Below, piece after piece: positions 20,468 through 64,000 of a DNA stretch of 64,000 nt. How positions within the stretch are numbered: the stretch's first letter is position 1; every line of letters starts with the position of its first letter. The DNA comes from Candidatus Woesebacteria bacterium (lineage in GTDB: Bacteria > Patescibacteriota > Microgenomatia > UBA8517). The stretch lies in contig OY970314.1 of NCBI GenBank assembly GCA_963716475.1, positions 74,479-138,478 of the forward strand. Reading direction: 5' to 3'. Both the position numbers and the translations under genes were made by a program. Below the pieces are notes generated by a model that worked only from the letters and a program-made list of their open reading frames with translations, was not told the origin of the DNA and ran no database searches.

Positions 20468-20473
20468 GAATAT

Positions 20474-47379: not shown

Positions 47380-47384
47380 ATGGT

Positions 47385-48995
47385 ATGTTTGGGAACCTTT
47401 TCGATAAGATTTTGGGTGGTGAGGAGAATGTTGTTGAAGAGATCAAAAGCGAGGTAGTTGAACAAAAAAGCAATTTGAGTCCTGCCAAGATAAAAAATTT
47501 TCTAAAAAACTCCTGGCAACCACTTCTTGTATTCTTGATAGCTTTAGCTCCAAGACTAATTTTTCTTTTTACACATGACCCGCAAAATGCCGGTATGGAT
47601 TGGTATGGCGATGTCTACCATCATTGGCAAATTGCTTATCTTTCCGGAAAAATAGGGTTTGGCGTTTCCTTTTTGAGACTGTGGGACTTGAAAGGCTTGG
47701 AGTTTTTTTGGGGATTGGGACATCCTTTAGTTTTAAATATACTTTTTTGGTTAACAGGAAGTGTAAGTATAATAATTCCAAGACTTTTATCCGTGGTTTG
47801 CGGCTCACTTGTAGTTTCTTTCATTTTTGTTTTGGTGAAACGCTACTTTAGTCTGCCAACCGCCATTCTGGTTGCTGCCTGGGCGGCATTTTTCTCTGTA
47901 GCTTTATTCTCAGACACTTTGGGCATGCAGGAACAGTTGGGTCTTGTTGCGCTTCTCGGAGGAATAATTGCCTGGCCGGCTGCCCCGTTAGCCACTGGTT
48001 TAGCTTGGTTTTTTGCTTCTACCGTCCGTTCGGAATACTGGCTTTTTGCTTTAGGGCTTTTTCTAGTTGCATTGCTAAGGCACGAAGATAAAGGTTCCGG
48101 AAAGAAGGCCGTTTTAGCCTTGGCTTACCTCCTGCCGATAATTTTTTACATGAAGTACTTATTACAATATACAGGCAACGCCATTTTTCCTATCTACTGG
48201 AATTTTCTGGCATCGGTTATCGGTAAATGGTTTACGAATGTTGACACTCCTTTTACAGCAGAGCAAGTTACGGCAAGACTTATCGGCAAGGGAATATTTG
48301 CCTTAGGTTTTATCGGAACTGTCGTAACTTTCTTTAAAAAACCAAAGGCCAACCTGCTATTTTTAGCTGGGTTTTTAAATATCACTTTTGTAGGTTTTAT
48401 TTTTGGATTTGCTGCCTATACTCATGGATTTTTTGACCGCTTTTGGGTGGACAGACTGTTTGCTTATCCATACGTTTTTGCTGGGATGACGGTTCTTATT
48501 GCTGTTTGCGAATGGCTGCCGAAACTTCTTAAAACCGGTAAAAAAGCTTTCATCGGGATCGGAGTTGTGGTTTTGTTGGTTATTTTGGGTGTGGGACAGC
48601 TGGCATGGGTGAAAATTGATAAATACTGGGCAATAGCACAGGGTCCTTATAAAAATGAATTGGCTGTAGGGGAGTTCTTGGGCAAAAATATCGGCTCCGA
48701 CGGAAAAGTACTTTTCCCGGCGGATCGTCCTGTTTTGACGTATGTTTTGGTATATGACCATAAATTTGACGGGGCAAGAATTGTATCTCAAATGTACGAC
48801 CCTTATTACTATGCAAACGGAGAGGATAAATCGATAATCGAGGAAAAGTTTTTAACTTGGCTTAAGAAGGAAAATATTAAATATATTGTCTATACGAACA
48901 GGGTAGAATACCTGGAGGTGTTTGCCAAATACCCTGGTGAATTTAAGAATATGGGCGATAGTCTCGGAACCTCCCTATATGAAGTTTTTCAATAG
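47385..48995 (+). CDS. Polytopic membrane protein, GT-C (ArnT/PMT-like) architecture
   Basis: 536 aa with about 12 hydrophobic segments and a C-terminal soluble tail. The family assignment is unverified. Confidence 0.5.
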   Translation: MFGNLFDKILGGEENVVEEIKSEVVEQKSNLSPAKIKNFLKNSWQPLLVFLIALAPRLIFLFTHDPQNAGMDWYGDVYHHWQIAYLSGKIGFGVSFLRLWDLKGLEFFWGLGHPLVLNILFWLTGSVSIIIPRLLSVVCGSLVVSFIFVLVKRYFSLPTAILVAAWAAFFSVALFSDTLGMQEQLGLVALLGGIIAWPAAPLATGLAWFFASTVRSEYWLFALGLFLVALLRHEDKGSGKKAVLALAYLLPIIFYMKYLLQYTGNAIFPIYWNFLASVIGKWFTNVDTPFTAEQVTARLIGKGIFALGFIGTVVTFFKKPKANLLFLAGFLNITFVGFIFGFAAYTHGFFDRFWVDRLFAYPYVFAGMTVLIAVCEWLPKLLKTGKKAFIGIGVVVLLVILGVGQLAWVKIDKYWAIAQGPYKNELAVGEFLGKNIGSDGKVLFPADRPVLTYVLVYDHKFDGARIVSQMYDPYYYANGEDKSIIEEKFLTWLKKENIKYIVYTNRVEYLEVFAKYPGEFKNMGDSLGTSLYEVFQ

Positions 48996-49794
48996 CCACG
49001 AAGTTTTTTATCCCTGGCCAAAGGCTCTCAGGGCAAGCGGTTTTAAATATCTTTTTAGACCCAGGGAGGTTTTTTGGTTGGAAAACCTTATACAACTTGG
49101 TTCCCAAAAAGGGCAGAAAGCGTTGGAGGTAGGTTGCGGCCGGGGGGTAACCTTGGATCGGCTTAAGAAGGAATTTGGACTGGATACTTTTGGAGTGGAT
49201 ATTGCGGATGAGGCAATAACTGATGCCAAAAAAGAGTGTTTATTTAAACATGATTTGAGAGTGGGAAGTGCTACCAAACTGCCCTTTGAAGACGATTTTT
49301 TTGATTTGGTTGTGACTTTTGATGTTTTAGAACACATAGAAGATCAAAAGAAAGCAATATCGGAAATGGCCAGGGTAGTTAAAAAAGGGGGAAAGATTCT
49401 TATCTATACTATCAATAAGAACCAAACGGGAACCTGGAATTGGTTGCTCGATAAACTGGGGATAGATGTTTACAAACGATCGGATCATGACCCGAATCTT
49501 TTTTTGGACTCTAAATGGCTTGAAAGAGAATTGACCGGCTGCGGAATTAAGTTGGAAGAAGTTTCCTACTATGATGCTTTTTGGACCCTAGCTGCCAATG
49601 AGATTATTACGGTGTGCTTTATGCTATTCGGCCGAATATTTAATTGGGAAAAAAGCGCTGATTTTGGTAAGATGAAGTTAGGTTTTGCTACCTTATTTTC
49701 GAGATTTGTCGGTTTGATTTTGCGGATTTTGGATTTACCTTGGACAATATTCGGAAAATCTAATGCAGTTTTGGTTTGGGGTTATAAAGAATGA
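48979..49794 (+). CDS. Class I SAM-dependent methyltransferase
   Basis: 'ALEVGCGRGVTL' (motif I) and 'FDLVVTFDVLEHI'. I prefer the internal ATG 48979 to 48922 because it minimises overlap. Confidence 0.75.
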   Translation: MKFFNSHEVFYPWPKALRASGFKYLFRPREVFWLENLIQLGSQKGQKALEVGCGRGVTLDRLKKEFGLDTFGVDIADEAITDAKKECLFKHDLRVGSATKLPFEDDFFDLVVTFDVLEHIEDQKKAISEMARVVKKGGKILIYTINKNQTGTWNWLLDKLGIDVYKRSDHDPNLFLDSKWLERELTGCGIKLEEVSYYDAFWTLAANEIITVCFMLFGRIFNWEKSADFGKMKLGFATLFSRFVGLILRILDLPWTIFGKSNAVLVWGYKE

Positions 49795-52790
49795 ATAAAG
49801 CTTTTCGGATCATTAAGTATTTAATTGAATTTGGGTTTTTGCTTCTCTGTTTTGGAGTTACCCTTTATGTAACCTATTACTTTGGCTGGATGCTTTTAGT
49901 CAAAGGGCCAATGTCTGGTAATGATATTGCTTCGGCCATGAATAATATTGTCTATTTGGAAAAATGGTTCCCTCCAATTCCCCAATGGAGTTATCTTGGA
50001 AGTGGGGGAATGCCGTTTTTACAAATTTACCCCATTGCTCCTTTTGTTCTGACTTTTTTTCTAGGAAAAGCTATGCATTTTGATGTGCTCCAGATATTTA
50101 AATTTGTTTGCTTCATGAGTTTGCCGTTGGCAGCAACAGGTGTGGCTGCTTTGGGTCGGGTTTTGACCAAAAGCTGGTGGGTAGGTCTTTTGGCCGGGGT
50201 AATCATGCTCATTTCACCGGATTCATGGCTATGGATCACCTACGGGGGATTTTATGCCGTAAATTTTTCCGTTCCGTTTTTTGCTTGGTCTTTAGTCTTT
50301 TTTTGTTTGGCTTTGGAAATGAAGAGTTTTTGGTGGTCGCTGGTTGCTGCTATTTTTTATGGAGTTACCTGGCTGGCACATCCCATGTCGGGAATGCTGG
50401 GCGCTGTGGTCATGGCGTTTTTGGGGATGGGGTACGGATTTAAGAATTATAATTGGAAATTATCCTGGAAATCGGTCTTACAAACAATGGGGATTGGTTT
50501 ACTGGGAATAGGTATTTTTGCCTGGTGGATTGTCCCGTTTTTAACCCGTGAGGATGTGGGTGGAATTTCTCTCGGTGCGGAACAAATGTTCAGAATGACC
50601 TTTTTGGAATTGGCCGGGCTTCAGCTGCCGGAATCGCTTATTTATAACACTTCCACCTTTTACGCCCTCTCTGCAATTATTTTATTTATTTTCGGGTCGG
50701 TTGTTGTATTTTTTAGAAGAAGTATCTTGAGGTGGGCGGTTTTGGCTTGTGGATTGGCAGTTTTTATAATGACGGCGCCCTATTATGCCCAGCCGATTGT
50801 TAAGATTTTCCAACTCTTTTGGGCGGCAACAAATGTGCGTTCAGGTCTGATTCTAAGAATACTGGGTCCGGTTGTGGGCGCATATGGTGCAGTTAGTGTT
50901 GTTAGGCCTTTGTTTTTTGCAGTGGAACATTTTGTTAAGGGGCTGAAAGAAAAAAGTTGGTGGTTCTATCTAACTGAAACTGTAGGAGGTGGGGTTGGAA
51001 TAATAATCTTTTTATTGCTGGTATTTAAAGGTCCGATAATTATCCCTCCCTGGCAGGGTGAAGGAGATAAAAGTTTGGCCTATTCAGGCTACGGACCTTT
51101 AAGAAACTGGTTTTTAACCGTTAGGAAGGATGGAACGCTTTGGGCTGTCTTAACTGATGAAAAAGGCAAAGAAACCATTAAACCTCTGTATAAAAATAGC
51201 CAGGAAATTATTTCAGATTTAACTCACCTGACTTCATTGGTTTTGAAGTCGGAAGAGTCCTATTGGGATCTGGTTCTTAGGGCCATGGTTGAAAAGAGTG
51301 GAGTAACAGAGAAGGACAGAATAGATTTTCCTCCGGGTTGGTCTATAGTTGGGGCGATCGGCAATTATTCCCAAGTCGGCACGGTACAGGCCTACATTGG
51401 CTCGAGCTTAATTCAGCCTATGATAGGCTGGCAGATTGATTGTGTTTTTTACAATAAACTTTGCGGTCCCAAACAAATCGCCGATATCTATAAGTGGTTT
51501 GGTGTGAGCCAAATTTGGATCGGGCAGGGCGATATTCAAAACCCGACGAATTATTTGGCCAGATTTTATAACCAGGATTTTTGTAAATGGGAAAAATTGA
51601 ATCTGGGCTCATTTAGCAAGGAGGAAGAGTCCTTGAATATTTGCCGTATGCCGGAAAATACTTTGGCCAGCATCACCAATAAACCCGCTATTTTGGTTAT
51701 TGGCGACAACCCCCCAAATAATGATGTTTTTGCCTCAGTTTTTAAAGACTTAACCAAAGTTGATTTCGGCTATCAAAACGCATGGAGTGTAAAAGGGAAA
51801 AGATTTATAGACGATTATCCGCTTGAGGAATTACAAAAATTTGAAGGCATATTCCTTTATGGCTATCAATATCACGATAAAACCAAAGCCTGGAATCTTT
51901 TGGATAAATATGTTTCGGGTGGCGGAAATCTATTTATAAATTCCGGATGGCAATATATGTCTCCGGATTGGGGTGCTGTAAAGAATGGAGTTTATCAAGA
52001 ATACCCCTTACCCAATCTGTTTCCTGTGAGTAAAACTACCTGGGGCCAGATTGAAAACGGTAAATGGAACCTAACTCTAGGTTCGCATCAGATTACACAA
52101 GGATTGGATACTACTGATTGGGGGGAGCCCTTATGGGAAGAGAAATATTGGGGTGTAGCCTACGCAAAGAAATCGGATTTAAGAAATGGGGCGACCAGTG
52201 TTCTGGAAAACAATGGGAAAGTATTGATGGCAGTAATGGACCATGGAAAAGGAAAAGTTGCCTGGACGGGTTTCGATTTTTGGGGACACTTGAACATTTA
52301 TCAAGCCGACAGTGAAAGGCAGTTGGTAAAGAATACTTTGACTTGGCTTTTGGGGAATAGCGGTACCGAGACAAAACTTGATTTTACAAGGGTCAGGCCT
52401 GAACTTATTAAGATTAAATTTACAGAATTATCGGGAGAAAATAAATTGATGTTTAAGGAAGTAGCCGATAATCACTGGTCGGCTAGTGCTACTTCTCAGA
52501 ACGGAAAGAAAATCTCTCTACCTATATATAAAGCCGGGCCGGGGTGGAAAATGGTCATAATTCCTTCCTCATTGGGTTCGGGTACTGTTACTTTTAGTTT
52601 TCATAAAAATATGATCCAAATTATTGGCATAATCATCTCGGCAATTAGTATTTGTTTGGTCGTTTTCCTGATTATCCTGAAATATAAAGGCAAGAATTTT
52701 GTTCAAGAAGTCAAGCAAAAGATTTCACTGATTTTTTCAAAAAAATTTAAGGATATCAAAAATAAATGGGAGGATGATACCGATGCGTAA
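49791..52790 (+). CDS. Large polytopic membrane protein with extracytoplasmic C-terminal domain and terminal TM (YfhO/GT-C-like architecture, unverified)
   Basis: 999 aa. The N-terminal ~420 aa are multi-TM, followed by a soluble region and a C-terminal TM. It shares 'GKGKVAWTGFDFW' with 'GKGKVVWSGANFF' in the next gene. ATGA overlap with the upstream stop. Confidence 0.55.
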   Translation: MNKAFRIIKYLIEFGFLLLCFGVTLYVTYYFGWMLLVKGPMSGNDIASAMNNIVYLEKWFPPIPQWSYLGSGGMPFLQIYPIAPFVLTFFLGKAMHFDVLQIFKFVCFMSLPLAATGVAALGRVLTKSWWVGLLAGVIMLISPDSWLWITYGGFYAVNFSVPFFAWSLVFFCLALEMKSFWWSLVAAIFYGVTWLAHPMSGMLGAVVMAFLGMGYGFKNYNWKLSWKSVLQTMGIGLLGIGIFAWWIVPFLTREDVGGISLGAEQMFRMTFLELAGLQLPESLIYNTSTFYALSAIILFIFGSVVVFFRRSILRWAVLACGLAVFIMTAPYYAQPIVKIFQLFWAATNVRSGLILRILGPVVGAYGAVSVVRPLFFAVEHFVKGLKEKSWWFYLTETVGGGVGIIIFLLLVFKGPIIIPPWQGEGDKSLAYSGYGPLRNWFLTVRKDGTLWAVLTDEKGKETIKPLYKNSQEIISDLTHLTSLVLKSEESYWDLVLRAMVEKSGVTEKDRIDFPPGWSIVGAIGNYSQVGTVQAYIGSSLIQPMIGWQIDCVFYNKLCGPKQIADIYKWFGVSQIWIGQGDIQNPTNYLARFYNQDFCKWEKLNLGSFSKEEESLNICRMPENTLASITNKPAILVIGDNPPNNDVFASVFKDLTKVDFGYQNAWSVKGKRFIDDYPLEELQKFEGIFLYGYQYHDKTKAWNLLDKYVSGGGNLFINSGWQYMSPDWGAVKNGVYQEYPLPNLFPVSKTTWGQIENGKWNLTLGSHQITQGLDTTDWGEPLWEEKYWGVAYAKKSDLRNGATSVLENNGKVLMAVMDHGKGKVAWTGFDFWGHLNIYQADSERQLVKNTLTWLLGNSGTETKLDFTRVRPELIKIKFTELSGENKLMFKEVADNHWSASATSQNGKKISLPIYKAGPGWKMVIIPSSLGSGTVTFSFHKNMIQIIGIIISAISICLVVFLIILKYKGKNFVQEVKQKISLIFSKKFKDIKNKWEDDTDA

Positions 52791-55557
52791 ACTTTGGAAG
52801 ATTTTAGGGGCTATTGGAGTAGTCATCTTGTCCCTGGCGGCGATTGGAATAACCGGCGCTTTTCTTTTTACACAAGTTAAAGATTGGATTTTTCTTCCTA
52901 AATTTGTCGGAACCGATACCTCGCAGTATATCCACATGGTTTTCTACTATATAAAGAATCCGCATTTCATCGTAGACGCATGGGACCACGTCTGGTTCAA
53001 CGGAGTTCCCAGATTAATTGATACCTCATGGATTCACTATACTCTGATAGCAACCTTTGCAAGATATTTTGGTGTCTATCAGGTTCTTAAAATTTATCCT
53101 GTTATTACTTTCTTTCTTGGAGCTGTGTTTGTTTATCTTTTTTTCTATGAAATTTCCAGAAGTATTTTGGTATCCCTTGCCTTAAGCATTTCTTTCGTTC
53201 TGGGGAAGGGATATTATACGGCTCTTTTTGAAAACGGCGTTGTAATATCCACCATGTCGCAGATGTTTCTCCCCATGCAGCTTTACTTTTTGGCAAGGTT
53301 TGTCAAAAGAGGCAATTACAAAAACCTTATTCTGGCATCAATAGTGAGCTCAATAGGCATGGGCGGGCACGTTTTGCTCATGCTCGTGTTTGGTGTGATT
53401 CCCTCGCTTATTTTTCTGCTTTTTAGTAACAGCAAAGGGAAGCATATATGGAGTATTTTCAGTAAAGAGGCTTTTTTAAATACATTTTTATTTGGTTTCT
53501 TAACATTACTTTTAGGTGCCGTTAGTCTTTGGCCGTATTTGGATTTGCTGTTTAGTGGTGGCGCTGCTATTCAGTGGAGGGCGGGATATTTAATTAGTGA
53601 TCCAAAGACCTGGGGGATAATGATGGATCTGAACAATCCCGGAAGCGGTATTGGTTTGGCGGCCGCAGTAATTATCGCCATACCCTTTATCATTTTCAAA
53701 AGGAGGCTGGATAAGGCTTTTGGGTCAATTTTTGCATTATTTATTTGGTATACGCTTTGGATGATTTCCTACACAGTAGTCGGCAATCTTTTTTTCCTTG
53801 TAATGTTTCCCGGTAGAATATATTGGATTTGGTCTTTGGTTTTGGGAGGTATGACTTCTGTTTTGGTGGCGTCAATGGATTTTGATGCAGAAGCGGGCGG
53901 TGTTGTTAAGAAGATTGGAAAATTTGCCATTGCCAACTTTAGCAAGATTGTGGTTGCGGGTGTAATTCTTTATGCAACTTTTATACCGTTTAGAGAAGAT
54001 CTGAGTCCATTTTTAAGTCAACTCAATATCCCCGCGAAATGGGAAACGGTAGATATAGTCAAACAAACCGAACAAAATGTTAGCTTCATACTCTCGCATA
54101 TTGATAACAGCAATACTAATCAGAGATTATGGACCCACAACTCGTTTATAAATCTTTCCTGGATACCCGTCTCAAATGTTCCTTTGTCTGAAGGCTATGC
54201 ACACTTTTGGACCCGCTACTCCAGACTTTGGGAAGGGTGGTTCTACGGGACGGTTTCCGCATCGAATTGGCAAAGTCAGGAGATACCCAGAGACATGGCC
54301 ACAGAGCAGTCCTTATTTTTCATTGATTGGTATGGAATTAAATATTTGTCAGCCCAGAAAAATGTAGGCGCGGAATGGGATGTTGCCGATCATTTCTATA
54401 TCAAATCCGATTATGTTGAAAGTATTGCATTAAATGATGCGGGGCTGAGCGTGATTACTATTTCTCCCGACTATACGTCGCCCATCGTTTCGTCAGTTAA
54501 TACCCCGGTTGTTGGATTTGTGGGTAGCGATGACTCGTATATGTCTTTTGTAAAAGATGTTGCGGTCCTGAACTTAAACACTTCCTACATGATTCCTGTG
54601 AGATTATCGAATACATTGTCCGAGCTTAGCAACGATAAATTGAAATACATGGACGCATTGGTTATTTATGATTATAAAAATGGATTATTTGGAAATTTAA
54701 AGTGGAGTGAAATTGAAAATTTTGTAAATAGGGGGGGCAAAGTCTGGATTGAAACAGGAGGGAATTCGATACTAAGTCAAAGCGGAAATCTTCCTAAAAT
54801 ATTTCCTATCTCCCGAAACAGTTATGGTTCACTAGGTGAAGAATGGGTGGCGGGGGGAGATATAGCAGGTAAAGTTGACTTTTCCCTGATGTCGAAACTT
54901 ATTTTCAAAGGAACTCCTTGGAAGTTATCATATGCTTCAACAAGTGATTTAAGAGAAGGAGCAAATGTACTTTTGACACAAAAGGGTAATCCTATTGCTG
55001 TATCTCAGAATATAGGGAAAGGCAAAGTAGTTTGGAGCGGAGCCAATTTTTTCTACAGACCCGAGGAATATAGACAAAATGGAATGAATGAAGTAAAACC
55101 GATAAATTTATTATTCCATGATTTATTGGGTGATCTTCCTAAAATCAAAATCGATTCTAAAGTAACCATGTCCACCCCGGAAAAGATAACTCTTACAGGA
55201 GTAAATTTATCAGGAGTAGTTCTCAAAGAAAATCATTGGCCGGGTTGGGTGGCAAAAGTAAATGCCGCAGGTAAAAATTATTCCGTTCCGGTTTTTTCCG
55301 CAGGGCCGGAATTAATGTATATTCCCATACCCAGGGAGGTCAGAAACGGTAATATAAGTGTAAATATGGATTATTTGGGCAGTCCGATAAATTGGATGGG
55401 GTTTGTAGTAACCGTATTTTCCTTAATTGCCTGTATAATTTATCTCTTATTTGGTAATATATTTCATATTAAACTTGGAGGTAAGGTGACTTCCTACTTG
55501 GATGCGAAAAAATATATATCCAAAATTTCCGGCTGGTGGGGGAAAGAGGATGAGTAA
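52774..55557 (+). CDS. Large polytopic membrane protein, paralogue of 49791-52790
   Basis: 927 aa with the same architecture and shared motifs ('GGKVWIETGGN' versus 'GGGNLFINSGWQ', plus the GKGKV block and a C-terminal TM). Confidence 0.55.
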   Translation: MIPMRKLWKILGAIGVVILSLAAIGITGAFLFTQVKDWIFLPKFVGTDTSQYIHMVFYYIKNPHFIVDAWDHVWFNGVPRLIDTSWIHYTLIATFARYFGVYQVLKIYPVITFFLGAVFVYLFFYEISRSILVSLALSISFVLGKGYYTALFENGVVISTMSQMFLPMQLYFLARFVKRGNYKNLILASIVSSIGMGGHVLLMLVFGVIPSLIFLLFSNSKGKHIWSIFSKEAFLNTFLFGFLTLLLGAVSLWPYLDLLFSGGAAIQWRAGYLISDPKTWGIMMDLNNPGSGIGLAAAVIIAIPFIIFKRRLDKAFGSIFALFIWYTLWMISYTVVGNLFFLVMFPGRIYWIWSLVLGGMTSVLVASMDFDAEAGGVVKKIGKFAIANFSKIVVAGVILYATFIPFREDLSPFLSQLNIPAKWETVDIVKQTEQNVSFILSHIDNSNTNQRLWTHNSFINLSWIPVSNVPLSEGYAHFWTRYSRLWEGWFYGTVSASNWQSQEIPRDMATEQSLFFIDWYGIKYLSAQKNVGAEWDVADHFYIKSDYVESIALNDAGLSVITISPDYTSPIVSSVNTPVVGFVGSDDSYMSFVKDVAVLNLNTSYMIPVRLSNTLSELSNDKLKYMDALVIYDYKNGLFGNLKWSEIENFVNRGGKVWIETGGNSILSQSGNLPKIFPISRNSYGSLGEEWVAGGDIAGKVDFSLMSKLIFKGTPWKLSYASTSDLREGANVLLTQKGNPIAVSQNIGKGKVVWSGANFFYRPEEYRQNGMNEVKPINLLFHDLLGDLPKIKIDSKVTMSTPEKITLTGVNLSGVVLKENHWPGWVAKVNAAGKNYSVPVFSAGPELMYIPIPREVRNGNISVNMDYLGSPINWMGFVVTVFSLIACIIYLLFGNIFHIKLGGKVTSYLDAKKYISKISGWWGKEDE

Positions 55558-57009
55558 ATGAAAATTGCTTTCTGTTATCCTCCATTCACAAAAAATGGAC
55601 GCTATCCTAACCTGCCTCAAAATCGCCAATTTATCTATGAGGCTTCAAATGAGGTAAAAATCTACCCCGTGGTTCTTGCAACAGCAGCTACATGGTTAAA
55701 AAATTTAGGCCACGAAGTTCTTTGGCTGGACGGAGTGACAAGGCGTTTAAAAATGACCGAATTTAATTCGAAGCTAAATAAGTTTAAACCGGATATAGTT
55801 ATATTGGAGTGCAAAGCCCCGATCATGAATAAAATTTGGAACTTTATTAATAAAAATAAATTTCCAAAATCAGTTATATTGGGAGATCATGTAAGTTTTT
55901 TTCCTGAGGAGTCATTTAAAAAGTCCAAGGTAGATTATATTTTGACAGGTGGCGATTACGACTTTCTTATTAAAGATTTAGTGGAACACATTACTAAAGG
56001 TAAGCGATTAGGAAAAGGTGTTTGGTATAGGGAAGAAGGAAGAATAAAAAACACGGGGGAATTTGTTCCCAATAACGACCTTAATGAAGTACCTGTTATA
56101 GACAGAGAGCTTACAAGATGGAAGGACTATGGAGAGGCATACTTGTATCGCCCCTGCGCTTATATTATGTCAGGGAGAGGCTGCGGAATAGACAAGGAAA
56201 AATGTGGCATCTGCACTTTCTGTATATGGGAACACGCACTTTGGAAAAGGCAGGCAAGGCTTGCGATGCCGGAACAGGTTTTGAAAGAAGTAAAAAATCT
56301 TGCGAGCTTGGGTGTAAAAGAAATATTTGATGATTGCGAAAGCGGGGGGATGTGGAATATTGAATGGCTGAAAAGGTTTTATGAACTTCTCAAAAAGGAA
56401 AAACTTTTGGGTAAAGTTACGTTCTCCTCTAATGCAAGAGGAGACCAGCTTACCAAAGAAAAATGTAAACTTCTCAAAAAAATGAATTACAGACTACTTA
56501 AAGTGGGTTTGGAATCAGGTTCAAACAAAACTTTGGAACAAATTGCCAAAAGAGAAGTAATTGAAGATATCATTAAAGGTGTAAAAACGGCAAAAGATGC
56601 TGGTTTAAGAGTAATGCTTACGATAATGGTAGGTTATCCATGGGAGACGGAGGAAGAAGTGCAAATAACCTACGAGATCACCAAGAAACTGTTGCTTTAT
56701 AAAACCAGAGCGGGAGATTGTCTGCAATCGTCGGTAATTGTTTCCTACCCCGGGACGCCGCTTTGGAATATGGCAAAAACCAATAAATGGTTGAAAATTA
56801 ACCCTCTGGATTACGAGAAATACGATATGTCCAGGCCTATTCTTAAATCAAAATACAATCCCGTTAAATGGTGTCAAAAAATATGGTCGATTCAGAGTAG
56901 CCCATTGTTTATTGCTAAATCTGCAATTGGTATGAACAGCTTTCAGGACATGGCTCTTCTGGCACGAGGTGCAAAGTCTCTCGTAGGGCATATAATGGAT
57001 TTTTCATAA
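55558..57009 (+). CDS. B12-binding-domain radical SAM enzyme (class B-like), atypical Cys cluster
   Basis: 483 aa. The N-terminal Rossmann-like segment resembles a cobalamin-binding domain. The Cys cluster is 'SGRGCGIDKEKCGICTFC'. The ATG immediately follows the upstream stop. Confidence 0.65.
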   Translation: MKIAFCYPPFTKNGRYPNLPQNRQFIYEASNEVKIYPVVLATAATWLKNLGHEVLWLDGVTRRLKMTEFNSKLNKFKPDIVILECKAPIMNKIWNFINKNKFPKSVILGDHVSFFPEESFKKSKVDYILTGGDYDFLIKDLVEHITKGKRLGKGVWYREEGRIKNTGEFVPNNDLNEVPVIDRELTRWKDYGEAYLYRPCAYIMSGRGCGIDKEKCGICTFCIWEHALWKRQARLAMPEQVLKEVKNLASLGVKEIFDDCESGGMWNIEWLKRFYELLKKEKLLGKVTFSSNARGDQLTKEKCKLLKKMNYRLLKVGLESGSNKTLEQIAKREVIEDIIKGVKTAKDAGLRVMLTIMVGYPWETEEEVQITYEITKKLLLYKTRAGDCLQSSVIVSYPGTPLWNMAKTNKWLKINPLDYEKYDMSRPILKSKYNPVKWCQKIWSIQSSPLFIAKSAIGMNSFQDMALLARGAKSLVGHIMDFS

Positions 57010-57026
57010 GGTTTATTTTTAATTAA

Positions 57027-58397
57027 ATGAAAATTGTATTGGTTCATTCTGCTCAAAAAGCCTGGACAAAAGCTGCCCTAATACCTTTAGGTATTGGATA
57101 TATTGCCTCGTATTTGGAAAAAAATGGCTTTGACGATATCAGGATAGTTGATTATAGTGTTGAACGTAAAGCCAGGCTCCCTAAGGCCGATGTGGTTGGA
57201 ATATCCGCAACCACGGCATCAATAAAATCTGCCTGGAATTTTGCTAAAAAAGCAAAAAAAATGGGGGCTATTACTATAATTGGAGGAACTCATGCCTCAG
57301 CCTTACCGGAAGAGACAATACGGTTACCATATGTTGATATTGTTTGTATTGGAGAAGGTGAGCAAACAATGCTCGAGATATGCCGAATGATTAAATCAGG
57401 TAAAAATTCTTTTGAGAAGATTAAGGGTATTTGCTACAAAAAGAATGGGAAAATATTCTTTAACAAGCCACGGCCTTTTATTTCAGATTTAGATAGTCTT
57501 CCTTTTCCTGCCTATCATTTATTTAAGCTCCCGCTGTATTCAACTGCGCAACCCCTCGTTTCGTTCCGCAAACCTGTTGCCAATCTGGTTACATCCAGAG
57601 GCTGTCCATTTGGCTGCAATTTTTGTTATAAAGGTACCTTTGGTCGCACCTGGAGGCCCAGAAGTATAGAAAATGTTCTTGCTGAGTGGGAGTATTTAGT
57701 TAAAGAAGTTAAAGTATCCGAAATAGCTATGGTGGATGATGCCTTTAACTTGGACGTGAACCGTGCTATTAAAATTTGTAAGGAAATTAAAAAAAGAAAC
57801 CTAGTAATTCCCTGGAGATCCTCAAGTGGCATAAGAGCTGATCGTTCCTCTAAAAAATTATTAAAAATTATGAAAGAAGCTGGATGTTTTCATCTGGCTT
57901 TTGGAGTTGAATCTGGCGTGCAAAAAGTATTGGATGAGATTATTCATAAACAGCTTAAATTAAGTAGTGTAAAAAAGGCCTTTAAAATGTGCCGAGAGTT
58001 AGGCATTACATCGTGGGCATTTTTTATGATTGGAAATGTTGGTGAAACGTTAAAGAATGTACAAAAAACCATCGATTTTGCAATAAAACTGGACCCGGAC
58101 TTTGCCCAGTTTACTGTAGCAACGCCATTTCCCGGTACCTCTCTTTATCAGTTGGTCACCAAGGGTGGACAATTAAAAGTTAAGGACTGGGATAAATTTT
58201 ATATGTTTGGAAATAAAGGTTATTTTAACAATAATCTTAAAGCAGGAGACATAGAGCGATTAACTACCCACGCATATAGAAAATTCTATCTTAGACCGAA
58301 AGTTGTTTTTAGATTATTTAGGCGAAAGCAAACTTATTTGGCTTTATCGAATGTAATATCCGGAGCTTTTCACTATTTTTTTAATTACAACTTTTAA
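57027..58397 (+). CDS. B12-binding-domain radical SAM enzyme (class B-like)
   Basis: 456 aa with 'TSRGCPFGCNFCYK' (CxxxCxxC) after an N-terminal B12-binding-like domain ('VVGISATTAS...'). Confidence 0.78.
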   Translation: MKIVLVHSAQKAWTKAALIPLGIGYIASYLEKNGFDDIRIVDYSVERKARLPKADVVGISATTASIKSAWNFAKKAKKMGAITIIGGTHASALPEETIRLPYVDIVCIGEGEQTMLEICRMIKSGKNSFEKIKGICYKKNGKIFFNKPRPFISDLDSLPFPAYHLFKLPLYSTAQPLVSFRKPVANLVTSRGCPFGCNFCYKGTFGRTWRPRSIENVLAEWEYLVKEVKVSEIAMVDDAFNLDVNRAIKICKEIKKRNLVIPWRSSSGIRADRSSKKLLKIMKEAGCFHLAFGVESGVQKVLDEIIHKQLKLSSVKKAFKMCRELGITSWAFFMIGNVGETLKNVQKTIDFAIKLDPDFAQFTVATPFPGTSLYQLVTKGGQLKVKDWDKFYMFGNKGYFNNNLKAGDIERLTTHAYRKFYLRPKVVFRLFRRKQTYLALSNVISGAFHYFFNYNF

Positions 58398-58399
58398 TC

Positions 58400-59185
58400 A
58401 TGAAATTGCAAAAAAAATTTTTGAAAATTTTTCTTCAAAAACAGCCTTCTTTCCAGGCACTTTTTAGATCTGTTGAGGCAGATGCTTTAGCTGATTACAC
58501 AATCATTGATCCTGTAGTGGATCTTGGTTGTGGAGATGGTTCGTTTACTGAAGCATTTTTGGGGAAGGGCAGAAAAATAATAGGAATAGACACAAATCCC
58601 AAGGATTTAAAAGAAGCGGAGAAAAGGGGAATATATTCTAATATCTACGAAACCTCAGGTAGCAACCTCCCTCAAAAGGATGAACAGGTGGGTACGGTAT
58701 TTGCAAATAGCGTTTTGGAACACATAAAAGATTTAGATCCGGTCCTAAAGGAGTCGTATAGGGTTTTAAAAAAGGGAGGGACATTTGTTTTTACGGCTCC
58801 TAGTGAAAAAAGATTAAAACTTTATTTAGTTTACCGTCTACTTTCATTTTTTAGACTAAATAGGCTAGCAACTGTATCAGCCAACCTTATGGATAAGATA
58901 TTTGTACATTATAATTGTTGGTCATCGAAAACATGGAGCAATAAGCTGCATAATATTGGATTTAGCAAGGTCAAATATCAGTATAGAGGGTCACCCAGGA
59001 TATCACTAATCAGTGATCTTCTTTTCATCTTTGCGCCCATAGGATATTTAGAGAAGAAATTATTTGGACGCTATTTAGGATGGAGAAAGTATATAAGCCT
59101 GGTAATATATTTGTTTCTAAAAGATTACAAAGATGCATTGATTGGTAATAACGGTTCTGTTATAGTCGTTGAGGCAACCAAATAA
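58400..59185 (+). CDS. Class I SAM-dependent methyltransferase
   Basis: 'VVDLGCGDGSF' motif I and 'FANSVLEHIKD'. 261 aa. Confidence 0.75.
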   Translation: MKLQKKFLKIFLQKQPSFQALFRSVEADALADYTIIDPVVDLGCGDGSFTEAFLGKGRKIIGIDTNPKDLKEAEKRGIYSNIYETSGSNLPQKDEQVGTVFANSVLEHIKDLDPVLKESYRVLKKGGTFVFTAPSEKRLKLYLVYRLLSFFRLNRLATVSANLMDKIFVHYNCWSSKTWSNKLHNIGFSKVKYQYRGSPRISLISDLLFIFAPIGYLEKKLFGRYLGWRKYISLVIYLFLKDYKDALIGNNGSVIVVEATK

Positions 59186-60615
59186 TGAAAATATTATTAA
59201 TAAACCCCCCGAGAGTAATGGGGTATCCCGTGGTAAGAGAGGAGCGCTTCGAACACAAAGATATGGGTTCAGTTTATCCTCCTCTTAGTCTACTTCAAAC
59301 AGCAGCCATATTGGAAAAAGAGAAATATACAGTTTCTTTAATAGACGCAAATGGATTTGATTTGAAACTGACGGAGGTAGGTCAAAAGATAAAGGAATTT
59401 GAGCCGGATATGGTACTTATTAGAATAGGATTCGATACTCAAAAAACAGACCTGAAAGTTGTCAGCTTAGCTAAGAAATTTGGTGCTGTAACAATTGTCA
59501 GAAACCATATCATTTCGAGGACTCCTAAAATTAAGCAGGAAATCCTTAAGAAATATACCGCAATTGATATTCTTTTAAACCAGGAACCTGAAGCGGTCAT
59601 GCCCCAGCTGGCAAGAGTGATAAAAAGTAAAGCGGATTTATCTCAAGTTAAGGGAATTACATTTAGACTTGGAAGAAAGTTGATAACAACAGAAGATGCT
59701 TCAATTTTGTACGATCTTAATAAACTGCCGTTTCCCGCATACCACCTTTTACCCAACATGAACGTATATTACTCGGGTACTTACGGACCGCCATTTAGCG
59801 TAATACTTTGTTCCAGGGGGTGTCCGTTTAATTGTGCTTTCTGTGCCTACGGTCGAATGCCTTACCGAGTGAGGAGCCCCATTAACATAGCAAATGAACT
59901 TGAAAGGTTGACGAAAGAAGTAAAGGTGCATGAGTTCTGTCTTTTTGATGACGTGGCGACTCTCGATCCTGCTAGGATGATTGAGATTTGTAAGGAAATA
60001 ATTTCCAGGAAAATCAAGATCAGATGGGCTGCGGGACTAAGGGCCCCAACCGTCACTTATAAAATGCTTAGCTGGATGAAGAAAGCCGGCTGTGACGAGA
60101 TAGCAATAGGAATGGAAAATGGTACGGATGAAATATTAACCGCCATGGATAAAAGGGTTACAGTGGAAGATATTAAAAAAGCATCGGAAGCGGCACACAA
60201 GGCCGGTGTAAGAATATATGCAATGTTCATTATTGGTCTTCCCGGAGAAACCAAAGAAAGTGTGGAAGCAACCATTAAGCTTGCAAAAGAGATTAAACCT
60301 TTCTACACGCAATTTATGTTTGCGACACCATTTCCAGATACCAGAATTTACGAATATTACAAAAAGAATAAGTTTCTTTTATCAGAAGACTGGAGTAAAT
60401 ATTTTCCATTAAATAAGGAACCGATTGTTAGAACTAGAGATTTGACCAAAGGAGACCTAATAAACTTAAAAAATAGAGCGTATAGAGAAACGCTATTTGA
60501 TTTTAAATCCTTACTCGGACAAATCAGATGGAATGATTGGAAATGGAATATTCGAGGTATAAAACAGGTTTCCAAAAGAATGTTGGCTGCCCTTAGTTTT
60601 GAGCCCCTACGCTAA
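59185..60615 (+). CDS. B12-binding-domain radical SAM enzyme (class B-like)
   Basis: 476 aa with 'CSRGCPFNCAFCAYG'. TAATG overlap with the upstream stop. Confidence 0.78.
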   Translation: MKILLINPPRVMGYPVVREERFEHKDMGSVYPPLSLLQTAAILEKEKYTVSLIDANGFDLKLTEVGQKIKEFEPDMVLIRIGFDTQKTDLKVVSLAKKFGAVTIVRNHIISRTPKIKQEILKKYTAIDILLNQEPEAVMPQLARVIKSKADLSQVKGITFRLGRKLITTEDASILYDLNKLPFPAYHLLPNMNVYYSGTYGPPFSVILCSRGCPFNCAFCAYGRMPYRVRSPINIANELERLTKEVKVHEFCLFDDVATLDPARMIEICKEIISRKIKIRWAAGLRAPTVTYKMLSWMKKAGCDEIAIGMENGTDEILTAMDKRVTVEDIKKASEAAHKAGVRIYAMFIIGLPGETKESVEATIKLAKEIKPFYTQFMFATPFPDTRIYEYYKKNKFLLSEDWSKYFPLNKEPIVRTRDLTKGDLINLKNRAYRETLFDFKSLLGQIRWNDWKWNIRGIKQVSKRMLAALSFEPLR

Positions 60616-60619
60616 CGGT

Positions 60620-61699
60620 ATGAAGATTTTAGTTTTAAGCAGCCTGGCTGGCGATACAGGCAGCTATATCCGGGCGCTACAACTGACAGAAAGCCTCAAA
60701 GGGAATGGGGTAAAAGTCGAATTGGTTAGACCATCTCCGAAAACTTTACCATTTAAACTTGATTTATTATTTTCATTACCACGTTATCTGTACGAGATAA
60801 TTTTTTTCAAATACGACTACATAATGGCAGTAAAATCTTACCCTAATGTCGGAATCCCTATATTTTTTAAAAAATTGATCAGCCCGACAAAAATTATTCT
60901 GGATACAGATGATTTGTCCTTTGCCTATACGAAAGGATTATGGTCTTGGTTTTCAAAAATTCTTCAGGAGATATTTTTGCCACTTGCCGATTTGTATACC
61001 TGTCACAACCCTAAACTCAAGAAATATTTGGTCGGGAAACTTAAAATACCCTCTGCCAAGGTCTATTTTTTACCCCAGGGGGTATCGCATATCTTTTTTG
61101 AACCGAAAGTGTCGTTATTAAAAGAAAAACGGCTTAAAGAGCGGTTAAAGATTGGTGGTTCTTTGGTATTAATATTTACCGGACATTTGGATGTTGCTTG
61201 CGATTTACCTATGATTCTCAGATCTTTGCCACAGGTTTTCAATGTTTATCCCCAAGCAAGGTTGGTAATTATCGGAGACGGTTTGAGAAAAAAAGAAATG
61301 CAGTCACTGTCCCAGAAATTAAAAATTGCCGATAAATTAATTTGGATAGGTTTAGTTTCAAATAATCAAATCCCGAATTATCTAAATATGACTGATATAT
61401 GTCTGGTCTATTATCAAAATACCAGGGCTAATCTTTATAGAGTTTCACTTAAAATTAGAGAATATTTAGCCATGGGTAAAAAGGTAGTTTCTAACAATAC
61501 GGGGGACCTGAAATTATTTGCAAAATACTCTTATCAAACAGATTCTAATTTGGTGGATTATGGAAGAATGGTGGATCGGTTGCTGGGCGGTTATAGCGAC
61601 GGGCGGGAAAAAAAAGGAAAATTGTTCGTAAAGAAGAATTACTTATGGTCTATGATAGGAAAGAATTTTATTCAATTTTTAAAAAAGGAATTTAAATGA
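60620..61699 (+). CDS. GT-B (GT4/GT1-like) glycosyltransferase
   Basis: 'MKILVLSSLAGDTGSYIRA' N-terminus and C-terminal 'REYLAMGKKVVSNNTGDL'. I prefer ATG 60620 to 60599. Confidence 0.65.
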   Translation: MKILVLSSLAGDTGSYIRALQLTESLKGNGVKVELVRPSPKTLPFKLDLLFSLPRYLYEIIFFKYDYIMAVKSYPNVGIPIFFKKLISPTKIILDTDDLSFAYTKGLWSWFSKILQEIFLPLADLYTCHNPKLKKYLVGKLKIPSAKVYFLPQGVSHIFFEPKVSLLKEKRLKERLKIGGSLVLIFTGHLDVACDLPMILRSLPQVFNVYPQARLVIIGDGLRKKEMQSLSQKLKIADKLIWIGLVSNNQIPNYLNMTDICLVYYQNTRANLYRVSLKIREYLAMGKKVVSNNTGDLKLFAKYSYQTDSNLVDYGRMVDRLLGGYSDGREKKGKLFVKKNYLWSMIGKNFIQFLKKEFK

Positions 61700-62826
61700 A
61701 ATTATTCAAATTTAGCATTGTTATCCCTGTGAAACCTGGAAGAGTAATAGGAGCAGCTTTAAAAGCACTGAAGAAAGTGAATTACCCGACTAATCTAATC
61801 GAAGTAATAGTTGCATACGGATTTAATCCCTCGAGGCAGAGAAATAAGGCAGCGAATTTTTCTGGGGGCGAAATTATATATTTTCTTGATGATAATTCTG
61901 AAATTGACAAGAACGCTTTTCGGAAAGTAAATGATGTTTTTACAGGGAAAGAGATAAAGATAAGAAATTCCGGATTCAGAGGGTTTTCATTTTTTCCAGA
62001 GTCGGTTTCAAATGTAATTCAGAAAATATTTTTTTCGTCAAAAATTTACAAAGGAGAAATAGGAGCTGTTGGCGGACCAAATGTATGGACCAGGAAAGAA
62101 AACTTCTGGGAAACGGTATCCGGGGCTACTCAAGAGTCGTTCTTTTTACAAACGCGAATGGCTGCACGTCACAGGCCGATTGGTTTATTTCATAGAGCCA
62201 GCGAAAAGGAATTGGTATTATGTAATCTGGCTGTTAGAAGTGGGGTTTTTAAAAAAGTCGGTGGTTTTAATGAGGATCTTTATCCGAACGAAGAAAACGA
62301 ACTCTTAAACCGGTTTGAAAGTGCCGGATATCAACTTGCTTATCACCCTCAGGTAAAGGTTGAAAGACCGAGAAGGCAATCTTTAAATGGTTTGTTGGAT
62401 ATGTTTTACAATTACGGAAGGGGCAGAATGGAACAAATTCGTTTGGAGGGACTCGTACCCAATCTGCCTTTGACATCTCCTTTACTGTTGATTGTTTATT
62501 TATTGTTACTGGTGGTTGTTTTGAGCTTAAATAAAAATTATTTAGTTAATATTATTTTTCTATGCCCAATTATTATTTATTTACTTATGTCCTTAGGTTC
62601 GGCAGGCGGGTCCGCCCTGAGAAAAAATAAAATGTATTTAGTCGTTTTTCTACCAATAATGTTTCTAATTTCCCATCTAACTTATGCTTTGGGACTTATT
62701 GGGGGACTATTTACAAATCTAAAGAAAAAAAAGATAAGAGGTAAACACACGGAAATTAAATTGGTCAAACTAAAGGAATTTGGTAAGGCTTGGCAAAAGT
62801 ATGATTATGATAAAATGATGCCGTGA
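61696..62826 (+). CDS. GT2 glycosyltransferase with C-terminal TM segments
   Basis: 'FSIVIPVKPGR', 'IYFLDDNSEID' and 'PNEENELLNR'. The last ~120 aa are hydrophobic. ATGA overlap with the upstream stop. Confidence 0.68.
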   Translation: MKLFKFSIVIPVKPGRVIGAALKALKKVNYPTNLIEVIVAYGFNPSRQRNKAANFSGGEIIYFLDDNSEIDKNAFRKVNDVFTGKEIKIRNSGFRGFSFFPESVSNVIQKIFFSSKIYKGEIGAVGGPNVWTRKENFWETVSGATQESFFLQTRMAARHRPIGLFHRASEKELVLCNLAVRSGVFKKVGGFNEDLYPNEENELLNRFESAGYQLAYHPQVKVERPRRQSLNGLLDMFYNYGRGRMEQIRLEGLVPNLPLTSPLLLIVYLLLLVVVLSLNKNYLVNIIFLCPIIIYLLMSLGSAGGSALRKNKMYLVVFLPIMFLISHLTYALGLIGGLFTNLKKKKIRGKHTEIKLVKLKEFGKAWQKYDYDKMMP

Positions 62827-63008
62827 CGAAATTATCCGTTGATCAGAAGAAGTGCATTGGTTGTGGTTTATGCGAGGCTTTGGCCCCTAAAACTTTTAAG
62901 CTTAATTCTATAGGTAAATCTGAAGTAATTAACCAAAAAGGTGACAGTAAGGCCGATATTCAAAACGCGATTGACAGTTGCCCCGTCAAAGCTATTTCGT
63001 ATAAGTAA
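62823..63008 (+). CDS. Small single-cluster ferredoxin
   Basis: 61 aa with 'CIGCGLCEALAP...CPVKAI' (CxxCxxC...CP). GTG start overlapping the upstream TGA (GTGA). Confidence 0.75.
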   Translation: MTKLSVDQKKCIGCGLCEALAPKTFKLNSIGKSEVINQKGDSKADIQNAIDSCPVKAISYK

Positions 63009-63082
63009 TCTTCCTCAAGGTACGAAGAGCCCCGATCACCTTGTCAGGCTCGGTAAATGATGATATATATAGCCATACTTTC

Positions 63083-64000
63083 ATGAAAGCCTTGATTTTG
63101 GCGGGTGGGTTCGGCACGAGACTTAAAGAAGTCATAAGCGACAGGCCGAAAGTTATGGCGCCTGTTAACGGCAAACCTTTTTTGGAATATATAATTCAAC
63201 TTCTTCGAAGAAACGGGTTTAAGGAAATAGTAATTTCTGTAGGTTACTTGGGTGATTATATAAAGACTTACTTTGGTGACGGAACTAACTTTGGTGTAAA
63301 AGTTGAATATGTGGTGGAAGATTTCCCCCTGGGTACCGGGGGTGCATTGAAAAAGGCCGAATCTTATTTCGAGGAGCCTTTTTTAGTTGTTAACGGAGAT
63401 ACATATTTGGAAACGGATTTTTCGCGTCTTATATCTTTTCATAGTGGAAAAAAATCCCTGGCAACCATAGCGTTAGCCGTAATAAATAATGTGGGAGAAT
63501 CCGGGTTAGTTTCTTTGCAGAAATCCGGGAAAATAAAATCATTTAAAGAAAAACCCAAAACAAGCAAGAAGGGTCTTGTTAATGCGGGCTACTATTTCTT
63601 CACACCGAAAATTTTCAAACATATTCCTTCCGGGAAACGTCTTTCATTGGAGAAAATAGTTTTCCCAAAACTGGTAAAAGCCGGGCTGATTTACGGTTAT
63701 GCAATGAATGCAAACTTTTTGGATATCGGTAAACCGGAAAGCTATGAAATAGCAAAGACATATTTTAAAAAGCAGAAAAAGATAGTTATCGAAGCCAACG
63801 CTCCCGTGAGGGTTTGTTTTGCCGGGAGCGGAACTGACTTGCCGGAATACTTTAGGAAGTATGGCGGTAGGATTTTCTCCGTAACCATAGGGATGTTTGC
63901 GCACGTAAAAATTCAACTTACAGACCAGGCATTTATTAAAATTCATTTGAAAGATTACAGGAAAGAGGAAATCTACCAACTCGGGAAAATATTGCCGTAT
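63083..64000 (+). CDS. Sugar-1-phosphate nucleotidyltransferase fused to GHMP-type sugar kinase (3' end beyond window)
   Basis: This ORF is absent from the ORF track because it has no stop. I translated 306 codons by hand with no stop. It contains 'MKALILAGGFGTRLKE', 'PLGTGGAL' and 'VNGDTY', and after ~235 aa 'PVRVCFAGSGTDLPEYF', which resembles the N-terminus of HddA/GHMP kinases. Confidence 0.75.
   Translation, partial: MKALILAGGFGTRLKEVISDRPKVMAPVNGKPFLEYIIQLLRRNGFKEIVISVGYLGDYIKTYFGDGTNFGVKVEYVVEDFPLGTGGALKKAESYFEEPFLVVNGDTYLETDFSRLISFHSGKKSLATIALAVINNVGESGLVSLQKSGKIKSFKEKPKTSKKGLVNAGYYFFTPKIFKHIPSGKRLSLEKIVFPKLVKAGLIYGYAMNANFLDIGKPESYEIAKTYFKKQKKIVIEANAPVRVCFAGSGTDLPEYFRKYGGRIFSVTIGMFAHVKIQLTDQAFIKIHLKDYRKEEIYQLGKILPY

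Follow-up and report, generated by a model that had tools for sequence, protein, structure and literature searches.

What do three paralogous radical S-adenosylmethionine (SAM) enzymes do in an operon for making glycans? The question is raised by a 64,000-nt stretch of the genome of a Candidatus Woesebacteria bacterium (contig OY970314.1, positions 74,479 to 138,478), which in its full length we call the window and in whose positions all coordinates are given (Table 1). Near its 3' end, seven genes encode the radical SAM enzymes rSAM1, rSAM2 and rSAM3, a SAM-dependent methyltransferase (MTb), two glycosyltransferases of the GT4 and GT2 families (GT4b and GT2b) and a ferredoxin. A preliminary description of this DNA had called the three enzymes B12-type and had proposed that the cluster builds a heavily C-methylated or otherwise radical-modified glycan. 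The reading that we favour, and to which we give an even chance, is that radical chemistry tailors a sugar on a lipid-linked (possibly nucleotide-linked) glycan precursor, the seven genes forming the tailoring part of an operon for cell-envelope glycan in a Microgenomates bacterium of the candidate phyla radiation (CPR).

The list of open reading frames (ORFs) and the junction sequences place the seven genes where they had been reported, all on the plus strand and with the reported overlaps: TAATG between MTb and rSAM3, ATGA between GT4b and GT2b, and GTGA between GT2b and the ferredoxin gene. The start of rSAM1 lies directly at the stop of the upstream gene for a 927-aa membrane protein (TAAATG), and genes abut or overlap throughout 52774-63008. 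GT4b has an in-frame TTG at 60599, yet the public gene call on an identical contig begins at the ATG at 60620; for GT2a, a second GT2 gene further upstream in the operon, translation more probably starts at the ATG at 43118. The cluster had been thought to end at 63008. Instead, another gene starts soon after and leaves the window, and the continuation can be read from a Logan contig (L084; L numbers denote contigs and related loci) whose sequence is that of the window from position 55175 on, so the operon extends beyond the window. A scan of 44001-64000 for promoters and terminators was uninformative, giving counts equal to those in shuffled sequence.

That this is a glycosylation operon is borne out by its gene content, which includes a GT2 resembling polyprenyl-phosphate-sugar synthases, two GT4s, a short-chain dehydrogenase/reductase (SDR), two class I methyltransferases and three large PTPS_related proteins. 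From about 43.1 kb the operon encodes three polytopic PTPS_related-like membrane proteins, while a fourth membrane protein (536 aa) has no family match. The 927-aa protein has about ten hydrophobic segments at its N terminus and one at its C terminus, with a weak PTPS_related match at residues 106-255. Judged from their sequences, these PTPS_related proteins look GT-C-like, and they abut rSAM1 both in the window and in its relatives.

The three radical SAM enzymes themselves are 35% identical between rSAM2 and rSAM3, and 25-27% between rSAM1 and each of the others. All exceed the Pfam cut-off of 29.5 bits for the Radical_SAM domain (PF04055), with 62.9 bits for rSAM1, 71.7 for rSAM2 and 89.5 for rSAM3. 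AlphaFold2 models of rSAM1 and rSAM3 (pLDDT 94.0 and 93.4) superpose along their entire length with MgmA, TsrM, OxsB, CysS and TokK. On profiles and models, a two-domain class-B-like architecture is common to all three enzymes. Whether the N-terminal domains have a cobalamin-binding fold at all had been singled out earlier as the point on which the B12-type label hung; the fold is present in both models, and on this point the label was not refuted. A class-B-like fold also occurs as the flavodoxin-like domain of MiaB and RimO, to which fold matches were seen. A methylthiotransferase was ruled out, the N-terminal domain of the rSAM1 family having no conserved Cys triad.

The strongest case for cobalamin is rSAM2. 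Its N-terminal domain scores 66.3 bits against the B12-binding profile (PF02310, cut-off 32.1 bits) and aligns by sequence with the cobalamin domains of MgmA, OxsB and CysS, with the GG..S..PE and GEGE motifs among the matched elements. If any of the three enzymes is a true cobalamin-dependent C-methylase, these alignments favour rSAM2.

The iron-sulfur cluster loops set rSAM1 apart. The canonical CxxxCxxC reported for two of the enzymes was found in rSAM2 and rSAM3, while rSAM1 was rightly described as atypical: its loop reads CGIDKEKCGICTFC. It is not a four-Cys site, since alignments of 16 and then 48 family members showed C209, C219 and C222 to be invariant and C216 to be variable, which gives a family motif of C-x9-C-x2-C (x8-x10 across members). 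In the paralogue alignment, the first and last two Cys of rSAM1 match the canonical three, with six additional residues between them, and by this alignment the motif is an insertion into the canonical loop. The rSAM1 family has two further near-invariant Cys, C303 and C439, which could serve as hydrogen-atom donors or structurally.

Both rSAM1 and rSAM3 belong to large families. For rSAM1, 2918 homologues were found in the protein collection at E<=1e-5; the best 120 of these are all at least 50% identical to it and carry the labels Patescibacteria, Nanoarchaeota, Woesearchaeota, Hodarchaeales, Methanosarcinales, Chloroflexota, Actinomycetota, Poribacteria and Desantisbacteria. When one genome was scanned for each species, at least 592 matches were confirmed; those listed come from, among others, Candidatus Methanoperedens, FCPU426, Spirochaetia, Firestonebacteria, Goldbacteria and Kiritimatiellaeota. 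The rSAM3 family is comparable in size and conservation, and each of the two families is about 45-65% identical across bacteria and archaea. An hhalign comparison of the two gave a probability of 100% over 452 columns, including a family-specific N-terminal beta-hairpin insert that both carry with invariant polar residues. In rSAM1 this hairpin covers residues 19-25 (L19, Q21, N22 and R23; LxQNRQF), and in rSAM3 residues 16-24 (VVREERFEH). By these comparisons, rSAM1 and rSAM3 are large, strongly conserved and uncharacterised sister families. The source annotations of their relatives are generic or wrong ('YgiQ', 'BchE', 'RimO'). A second, more distant rSAM1 subgroup was also observed at 41-44% identity (L073-L083, e.g. 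L078 5902-11431), with GT2a-like and GT2b-like genes upstream in 8 of 11 loci and often also genes for NHL-repeat proteins and Wzx-type flippases; some genomes hold both subgroups, e.g. CAWJRG010000005 and CAZMGF01.

A census of genes within 7 kb of an rSAM1 relative was made over 75 non-redundant loci of 80 fetched from genomes, whose readable flanks extend 10 kb to either side. The commonest neighbour is a GT2 like GT2b, present in 35 of the 75 loci and usually directly adjacent. An rSAM3-like gene was found in 23 loci (24 genes, 40-61% identity), followed by GT2a-like genes (19 loci), SDRs (17), GT4s (16), PF03706 flippase-like proteins (12) and Wzx-type flippases (11). Where at least 3 kb of flank was available on each side (51 loci), 57% had a glycosyltransferase homologous to one in the window no more than 5 kb away, and GT4b homologues recur close to rSAM1 relatives. 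The order rSAM1-MT-rSAM3-GT4-(rSAM)-GT2 recurs in other CPR-like contigs (L005, L086, L085) at 47-62% identity, which makes the association more than chance. CPR-like relatives keep this order behind the same giant membrane proteins and have up to five radical SAM genes. Orthologues of MTb stand at the same position in L004, L005 and L086 (48-49% identity), those of the 927-aa protein lie 5' of rSAM1 in L004 and L006 (48-49%), and the 999-aa protein has orthologues in L006 (54%) and L085 (46%). In a spirochaete-type locus, rSAM1 and rSAM3 adjoin a 1482-aa PMT_2/DUF2298 GT-C.

Several of these loci have features of their own. L005 and L006, from metagenome-assembled genomes labelled 'Gammaproteobacteria' and 'Nevskiaceae', carry the CPR-type operon in the same order at 42-62% identity, on contigs that are perhaps mis-binned or mislabelled. 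DPANN loci (Woesearchaeota and Nanoarchaeota; L011 255-9864, L053, L008) have three to five class-B-like radical SAM genes beside the rSAM1 relative. Meanwhile, Actinomycetota loci (L007, L015, L020, e.g. L020 1617-2606) have a PF03706 LPG_synthase_TM protein between the rSAM1 relative and a GT2b/GT2a pair, a placement that hints at a flipped lipid-linked intermediate.

These neighbours bear on the idea that the enzymes modify a peptide or protein, either like those of ribosomally synthesised and post-translationally modified peptides (RiPPs) or a glycosylated surface protein, and are merely co-located with glycan genes. SPASM-type radical SAM genes do occur in related clusters, and the enzymes weakly match two radical SAM profiles of RiPP pathways, ApyD and rSAM_ocin_1. 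The scores for RiPP profiles are far under their cut-offs, however, and the conserved partners of rSAM1 relatives are glycosyltransferases, so we regard this explanation as very improbable. A RiPP proper was ruled out, as 52774-63008 has no intergenic room for a precursor-peptide gene.

The glycosyltransferases point to a polyprenyl-phosphate carrier. GT2a matches Glycos_transf_2 at 105 bits, and by sequence it is akin to PpgS, AglJ and ArnC, which are polyprenyl-phosphate sugar synthases, although its scores for the two named families that were scored lie below cut-off (PpgS 69 against 370 bits; AglJ 54 against 325). GT2b alone reaches at most a sub-threshold 19 bits against GT2 profiles, yet its homologues are clear GT2s, and with three to four hydrophobic segments at its C terminus (residues 252-336) it agrees with its earlier description as a GT2 with transmembrane segments. 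As a single sequence it matches no solved structure, while its family profile matches GT2 structures. Among 23 members of its family, all match the MftF and EpsD profiles, 16 match AglG and one weakly matches HpnI. AglG glycosylates a dolichyl-phosphate-linked sugar.

The small ferredoxin, whose presence as a dedicated protein of the cluster was confirmed by its Fer4_13 match, has the pattern CxxCxxC...CP. Its four Cys make it a single [4Fe-4S]-type ferredoxin, and it is likely the electron donor of the radical SAM enzymes. In five Firestonebacteria-type loci (L059 5544-6701 and relatives), a protein with DUF362 and 2x[4Fe-4S] ferredoxin domains is encoded about 1 kb 3' of the rSAM1 relative, right after the GT2b-like gene; it may be an electron donor, as the small ferredoxin of the window would be.

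Sugar supply is suggested by the genes that follow. On L084 (7909-10952) comes first a 573-aa HddC+HddA-like fusion, then a 198-aa GmhA-like isomerase and finally an SDR of the 4,6-dehydratase-like type. Names from the GDP-D-glycero-D-manno-heptose pathway are likely but not certain for the first two, being the best-scoring ones with every score below its cut-off (GmhA-like, 198 against 276 bits for PRK13936 and 171 against 209 for TIGR00441; HddA-like, 199 against 600; HddC-like, 167 against 300). A heptose-type sugar is thus a plausible building block, and by their sequences the downstream genes suggest a GDP-heptose, possibly 6-deoxyheptose, precursor.

Taken together, our favoured reading of radical sugar tailoring would work as follows. 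The SDR encoded upstream, together with the HddC/HddA-like fusion, the GmhA-like isomerase and the second SDR downstream, would activate the sugar. On the cytoplasmic side of the membrane, GT2a, GT2b and the GT4s would load sugars onto a polyprenyl-phosphate carrier and extend them, and the lipid-linked intermediate would be flipped across the membrane, after which the GT-C-like PTPS_related proteins would pass the glycan to a surface acceptor. The three radical SAM enzymes would act in the cytoplasm on the sugar of the lipid-linked, or possibly nucleotide-linked, intermediate. The ferredoxin would reduce the [4Fe-4S] cluster of each enzyme, SAM would yield the 5'-deoxyadenosyl radical, and a hydrogen atom would be abstracted from a sugar carbon. 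With rSAM2, the substrate radical would most likely be quenched by methylcobalamin to give C-methylation, while rSAM1 and rSAM3 might either methylate or carry out a cobalamin-independent dehydration or rearrangement; MTb would add an ordinary O- or N-methyl group. Class B enzymes are known to C-methylate sugars (GenK, GenD1 and MoeK5; PMC12931638), and HpnJ and Cds set a precedent for radical reactions of sugars joined to lipids (PMC13459092). The heavily C-methylated glycan proposed at first is one option among several.

A number of observations weigh against this reading. Among well-flanked loci, 43% have no glycosyltransferase homologous to those of the window within 5 kb. No homologue of the ferredoxin or of the heptose genes was found near rSAM1 relatives in 83 related loci; these genes were accordingly rejected as conserved partners and are taken as lineage-specific additions. 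Only rSAM2 passes the B12-binding threshold, as rSAM3 scores 20.6 bits and rSAM1 has no match, and in place of a GEGE-type motif rSAM1 and rSAM3 have GGDYD and NQEPE. The top curated NCBIfam profile for all three enzymes is HpnJ (TIGR03471; 130.9, 214.0 and 189.7 bits for rSAM1, rSAM2 and rSAM3 against a cut-off of 577.6), and BchE (TIGR02026; 78, 184 and 176 bits against 481) comes second for rSAM2 and rSAM3, with alignments to both profiles covering both domains. Neither HpnJ nor BchE is a methylase. Lower-ranked profiles include P-methylases, ApyD, a ladderane-type lipid enzyme, AprD4 and MgmA, all far below their cut-offs. Every curated score is two- to five-fold under its cut-off for all three enzymes, and none reaches the cut-off of any methylase family among MgmA (TIGR04014), PhpK, HpnR, KedN5 and the TsrM type. 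Methylation and B12 use are thus unproven, and profile classification does not establish the enzymes as methylases. Finally, the nearest solved structure for the two modelled enzymes, rSAM1 and rSAM3, is that of AprD4 (Foldseek for rSAM3: E 2.6e-29, TM-scores 0.76/0.80). AprD4 and ArsL fall in the class B sequence network yet bind no cobalamin (PMC12931638, a 2026 review). Cobalamin binding has no diagnostic sequence signature. Since a cobalamin-free enzyme has the same fold, the label B12-type holds for architecture and does not establish cobalamin use.

The same scores and structures support sugar radical chemistry that needs no cobalamin at all. By this account rSAM1, rSAM3 and possibly rSAM2 would be AprD4-like or HpnJ/Cds-like enzymes, which would dehydrate a diol, epimerise the sugar or contract a ring to a carbocycle, and their N-terminal domains would have a structural or substrate-binding role. 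By sequence, rSAM2 and rSAM3 match AprD4 best in the PDB, and the rSAM1 family matches MgmA best; the substrate of AprD4 is a sugar, paromamine, and HpnJ is proposed to contract a ring on a lipid sugar installed by a GT2. The SDR genes counted in 17 loci stand directly 5' of the rSAM1 relatives, the B12 motifs of rSAM1 and rSAM3 are degenerate, and CPR genomes of about 1 Mb are unlikely to make cobalamin. The reduced genome assumed for this host was supported, as the ArgRS gene of the window (identical) and rSAM3 lie on a 982,852-bp contig, and the nearest named ArgRS relatives (71-73% identity) are Candidatus Microgenomates. On the other side, identity to AprD4 is just 16-20%, the AprD4 profile (NF033070) gives 39, 109 and 91 bits for rSAM1, rSAM2 and rSAM3 against a cut-off of 500, and the sequence alignments to AprD4 are limited to the radical SAM domain, whereas the N-terminal domain of rSAM2 aligns with true cobalamin binders. 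PF02310 is also still matched by 14 of 20 rSAM3 family members (E<=0.01) and, as a precomputed match, by 59 of the best 120 of the 2918 rSAM1 relatives, and no HpnK-like deacetylase gene is present in the cluster. We hold cobalamin-independent sugar chemistry to be a possible, though doubtful, alternative.

A modified lipid rather than a modified sugar is a further candidate product: a polyprenyl or acyl chain might, for instance, be methylated or cross-linked and so yield a glycolipid anchor of altered structure. All three enzymes match TIGR04072 ('lipid biosynthesis B12-binding/radical SAM protein') and HpnR at 63-115 bits, but these scores are far below the cut-offs of 360 and 650 and below those for HpnJ and BchE. 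A polyprenyl synthetase and an UppS-like enzyme are encoded in the window, although more than 40 kb from the radical SAM genes. Many lipid-modifying radical SAM enzymes are known (PMC13459092), and a UbiA prenyltransferase is found close to a Hodarchaeales rSAM1 relative; the genes that recur as neighbours, however, encode glycosyltransferases, sugar SDRs and glycan flippases rather than enzymes of lipid synthesis. That bacterial and archaeal proteins are about 50% identical is also easier to reconcile with a sugar or polyprenyl-phosphate head group that both share than with lipid tails that are specific to each domain. We consider such a lipid substrate improbable.

Bacterial and archaeal members of the rSAM1 family share 50-56% identity, and conservation of this degree speaks for a substrate that both domains possess, for instance a sugar or a sugar carried on polyprenyl phosphate. 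Within the favoured reading of sugar tailoring we put forward a bolder and more speculative proposal, which is rather less probable than its negation: that rSAM1, with its C-x9-C-x2-C loop, and rSAM3 form an unrecognised ancient two-enzyme module that has spread horizontally between bacteria and archaea and makes a radical modification, so far undescribed, to a sugar linked to polyprenyl phosphate; the product might be a C-methyl or C-branched sugar, a deoxy sugar or a carbocyclic pseudo-sugar, among others. We found no description of the rSAM1/rSAM3 pair, the variant cluster loop or the fixed association with a membrane GT2 in the searchable literature, while the enzyme class and the operon logic are of already known kinds. 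If the proposal is true, a distinctive surface building block would be common to CPR bacteria, DPANN, Asgard archaea, Methanoperedens, Chloroflexota, Spirochaetota and other anaerobes. CPR and DPANN organisms live attached to other cells, and surface glycans are central to this lifestyle and chemically almost unknown. Solving the reaction of rSAM1 and rSAM3, whose families are set consistently in operons for glycans, would assign a function to thousands of proteins annotated as 'B12-binding radical SAM', and rSAM1 would show whether its unusual loop permits normal SAM cleavage and could reveal a new sugar modification. The cofactor question, in turn, bears on whether symbionts with genomes of about 1 Mb rely on scavenged cobalamin for envelope synthesis.

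Table 1. Features of the window, by position (aa, length of the encoded protein; bits, profile score)
Feature	Position	Strand	Description
Polyprenyl synthetase	10637-11611	-	
UppS-like cis-prenyltransferase	11564-12841	+	425 aa
Giant ORF	15395-19282		1295 aa
ORF	19275-19838		~190-200 aa; no Pfam match
Giant ORF	20438-31612		3724 aa
GT-C gene	31625-33550		
ORF	33555-34127		190 aa; no Pfam match
Giant ORF	35013-41273		2086 aa
ORF	41283-41888		~190-200 aa; no Pfam match
Upstream half of the operon	43082-49794	+	GT2a, 446-aa membrane protein, SDR epimerase/dehydratase, GT4a, 536-aa membrane protein, class I methyltransferase MTa
PTPS_related membrane protein	49791-52790	+	999 aa; PF10131 42 bits; read as GT-C-like
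Polytopic membrane protein	52774-55557	+	927 aa; large soluble domain; read as GT-C-like
rSAM1	55558-57009	+	483 aa; radical SAM with class-B-like N-terminal Rossmann domain; C-x9-C-x2-C family
rSAM1 Fe-S cluster loop	56182-56223	+	C209, C219 and C222 conserved ligands; C216 lineage-specific
rSAM2	57027-58397	+	456 aa; canonical B12-binding and radical SAM domains
rSAM2 cluster motif	57603-57626	+	CPFGCNFC
MTb	58400-59185	+	261 aa; class I SAM-dependent methyltransferase; Methyltransf_11 73 bits
rSAM3	59185-60615	+	476 aa; radical SAM with degenerate B12-like N-terminal domain; sister family of rSAM1
rSAM3 cluster motif	59821-59844	+	CPFNCAFC
GT4b	60620-61699	+	359 aa; GT4 family (GT-B fold); Glycos_transf_1 and Glyco_trans_1_4, 45 bits
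GT2b	61696-62826	+	376 aa; divergent GT2 with C-terminal membrane anchor; weak GT2 matches
Ferredoxin	62823-63008	+	61 aa; GTG start; Fer4_13 60 bits
HddC/HddA-like fusion	63083-64000 (exits window)	+	sugar-1-phosphate nucleotidyltransferase and GHMP kinase; full gene 573 aa

Outside the operon, the window holds three paralogous giant ORFs with N-terminal transposase-like helix-turn-helix domains, a processive-type GT2 domain and a very long C-terminal extension; the fusion of a helix-turn-helix domain with a membrane GT2 is unusual. The largest of the three proteins has a Laminin_G_3 domain at residues 2500-2659, and its ORF is followed by the GT-C gene and then by one of the small ORFs in Table 1, while the other two giant ORFs are each followed directly by a small ORF. 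The two prenyl-chain genes are divergent, with predicted 5' ends that overlap by 48 nt, and the Pfam domain of the UppS-like ORF spans residues 20-239 only.

Among known systems, the nearest in structure is AprD4, a radical SAM 1,2-diol dehydratase of the apramycin pathway (PDB 6FD2), which shares the two-domain layout of the three enzymes and acts on a sugar substrate. It differs in being a soluble enzyme of antibiotic pathways, with a canonical CX3CX2C motif that the rSAM1 family lacks, and no AprD3-type partner was identified in the cluster. Nearest in logic are HpnI and HpnJ, which act in the formation of the hopanoid cyclitol ether, and the calditol synthase Cds: a GT2 attaches a sugar to a lipid, and that sugar is then remodelled by a radical SAM enzyme (PMC13459092). 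The likeness here lies in the membrane GT2 as the commonest neighbour of rSAM1 relatives. Membership in the HpnI/HpnJ/HpnK system was rejected on scores and context, and it is kept as a mechanistic analogy only; no hopanoid genes (shc, hpnH, hpnI, hpnK) were found among the scanned ORFs of the window, and archaea and CPR bacteria, which are among the hosts here, are not known to make hopanoids.

The carrier side of the proposed pathway resembles the ArnC/ArnD/ArnT route and the archaeal AglJ/AglG dolichyl-phosphate routes, with a synthase-like GT2a, an AglG-like GT2b, flippases near relatives and large polytopic proteins that are possibly of the GT-C type. Those routes use no radical SAM enzyme, however, and against the profiles of these families the proteins of the cluster score far short of the cut-offs. 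The class B C-methyltransferases MgmA, TokK, CysS and TsrM are alike over the full length of their folds to the models of rSAM1 and rSAM3. The differences lie in the degenerate B12 motifs of these two and, for rSAM1, also in the cluster motif, which is C-x9-C-x2-C instead of CX3CX2C. The sugar methylases GenK, GenD1 and MoeK5, for their part, serve antibiotic pathways (PMC12931638), whereas the setting here is not a secondary-metabolite cluster but a primary cell-envelope glycan operon.

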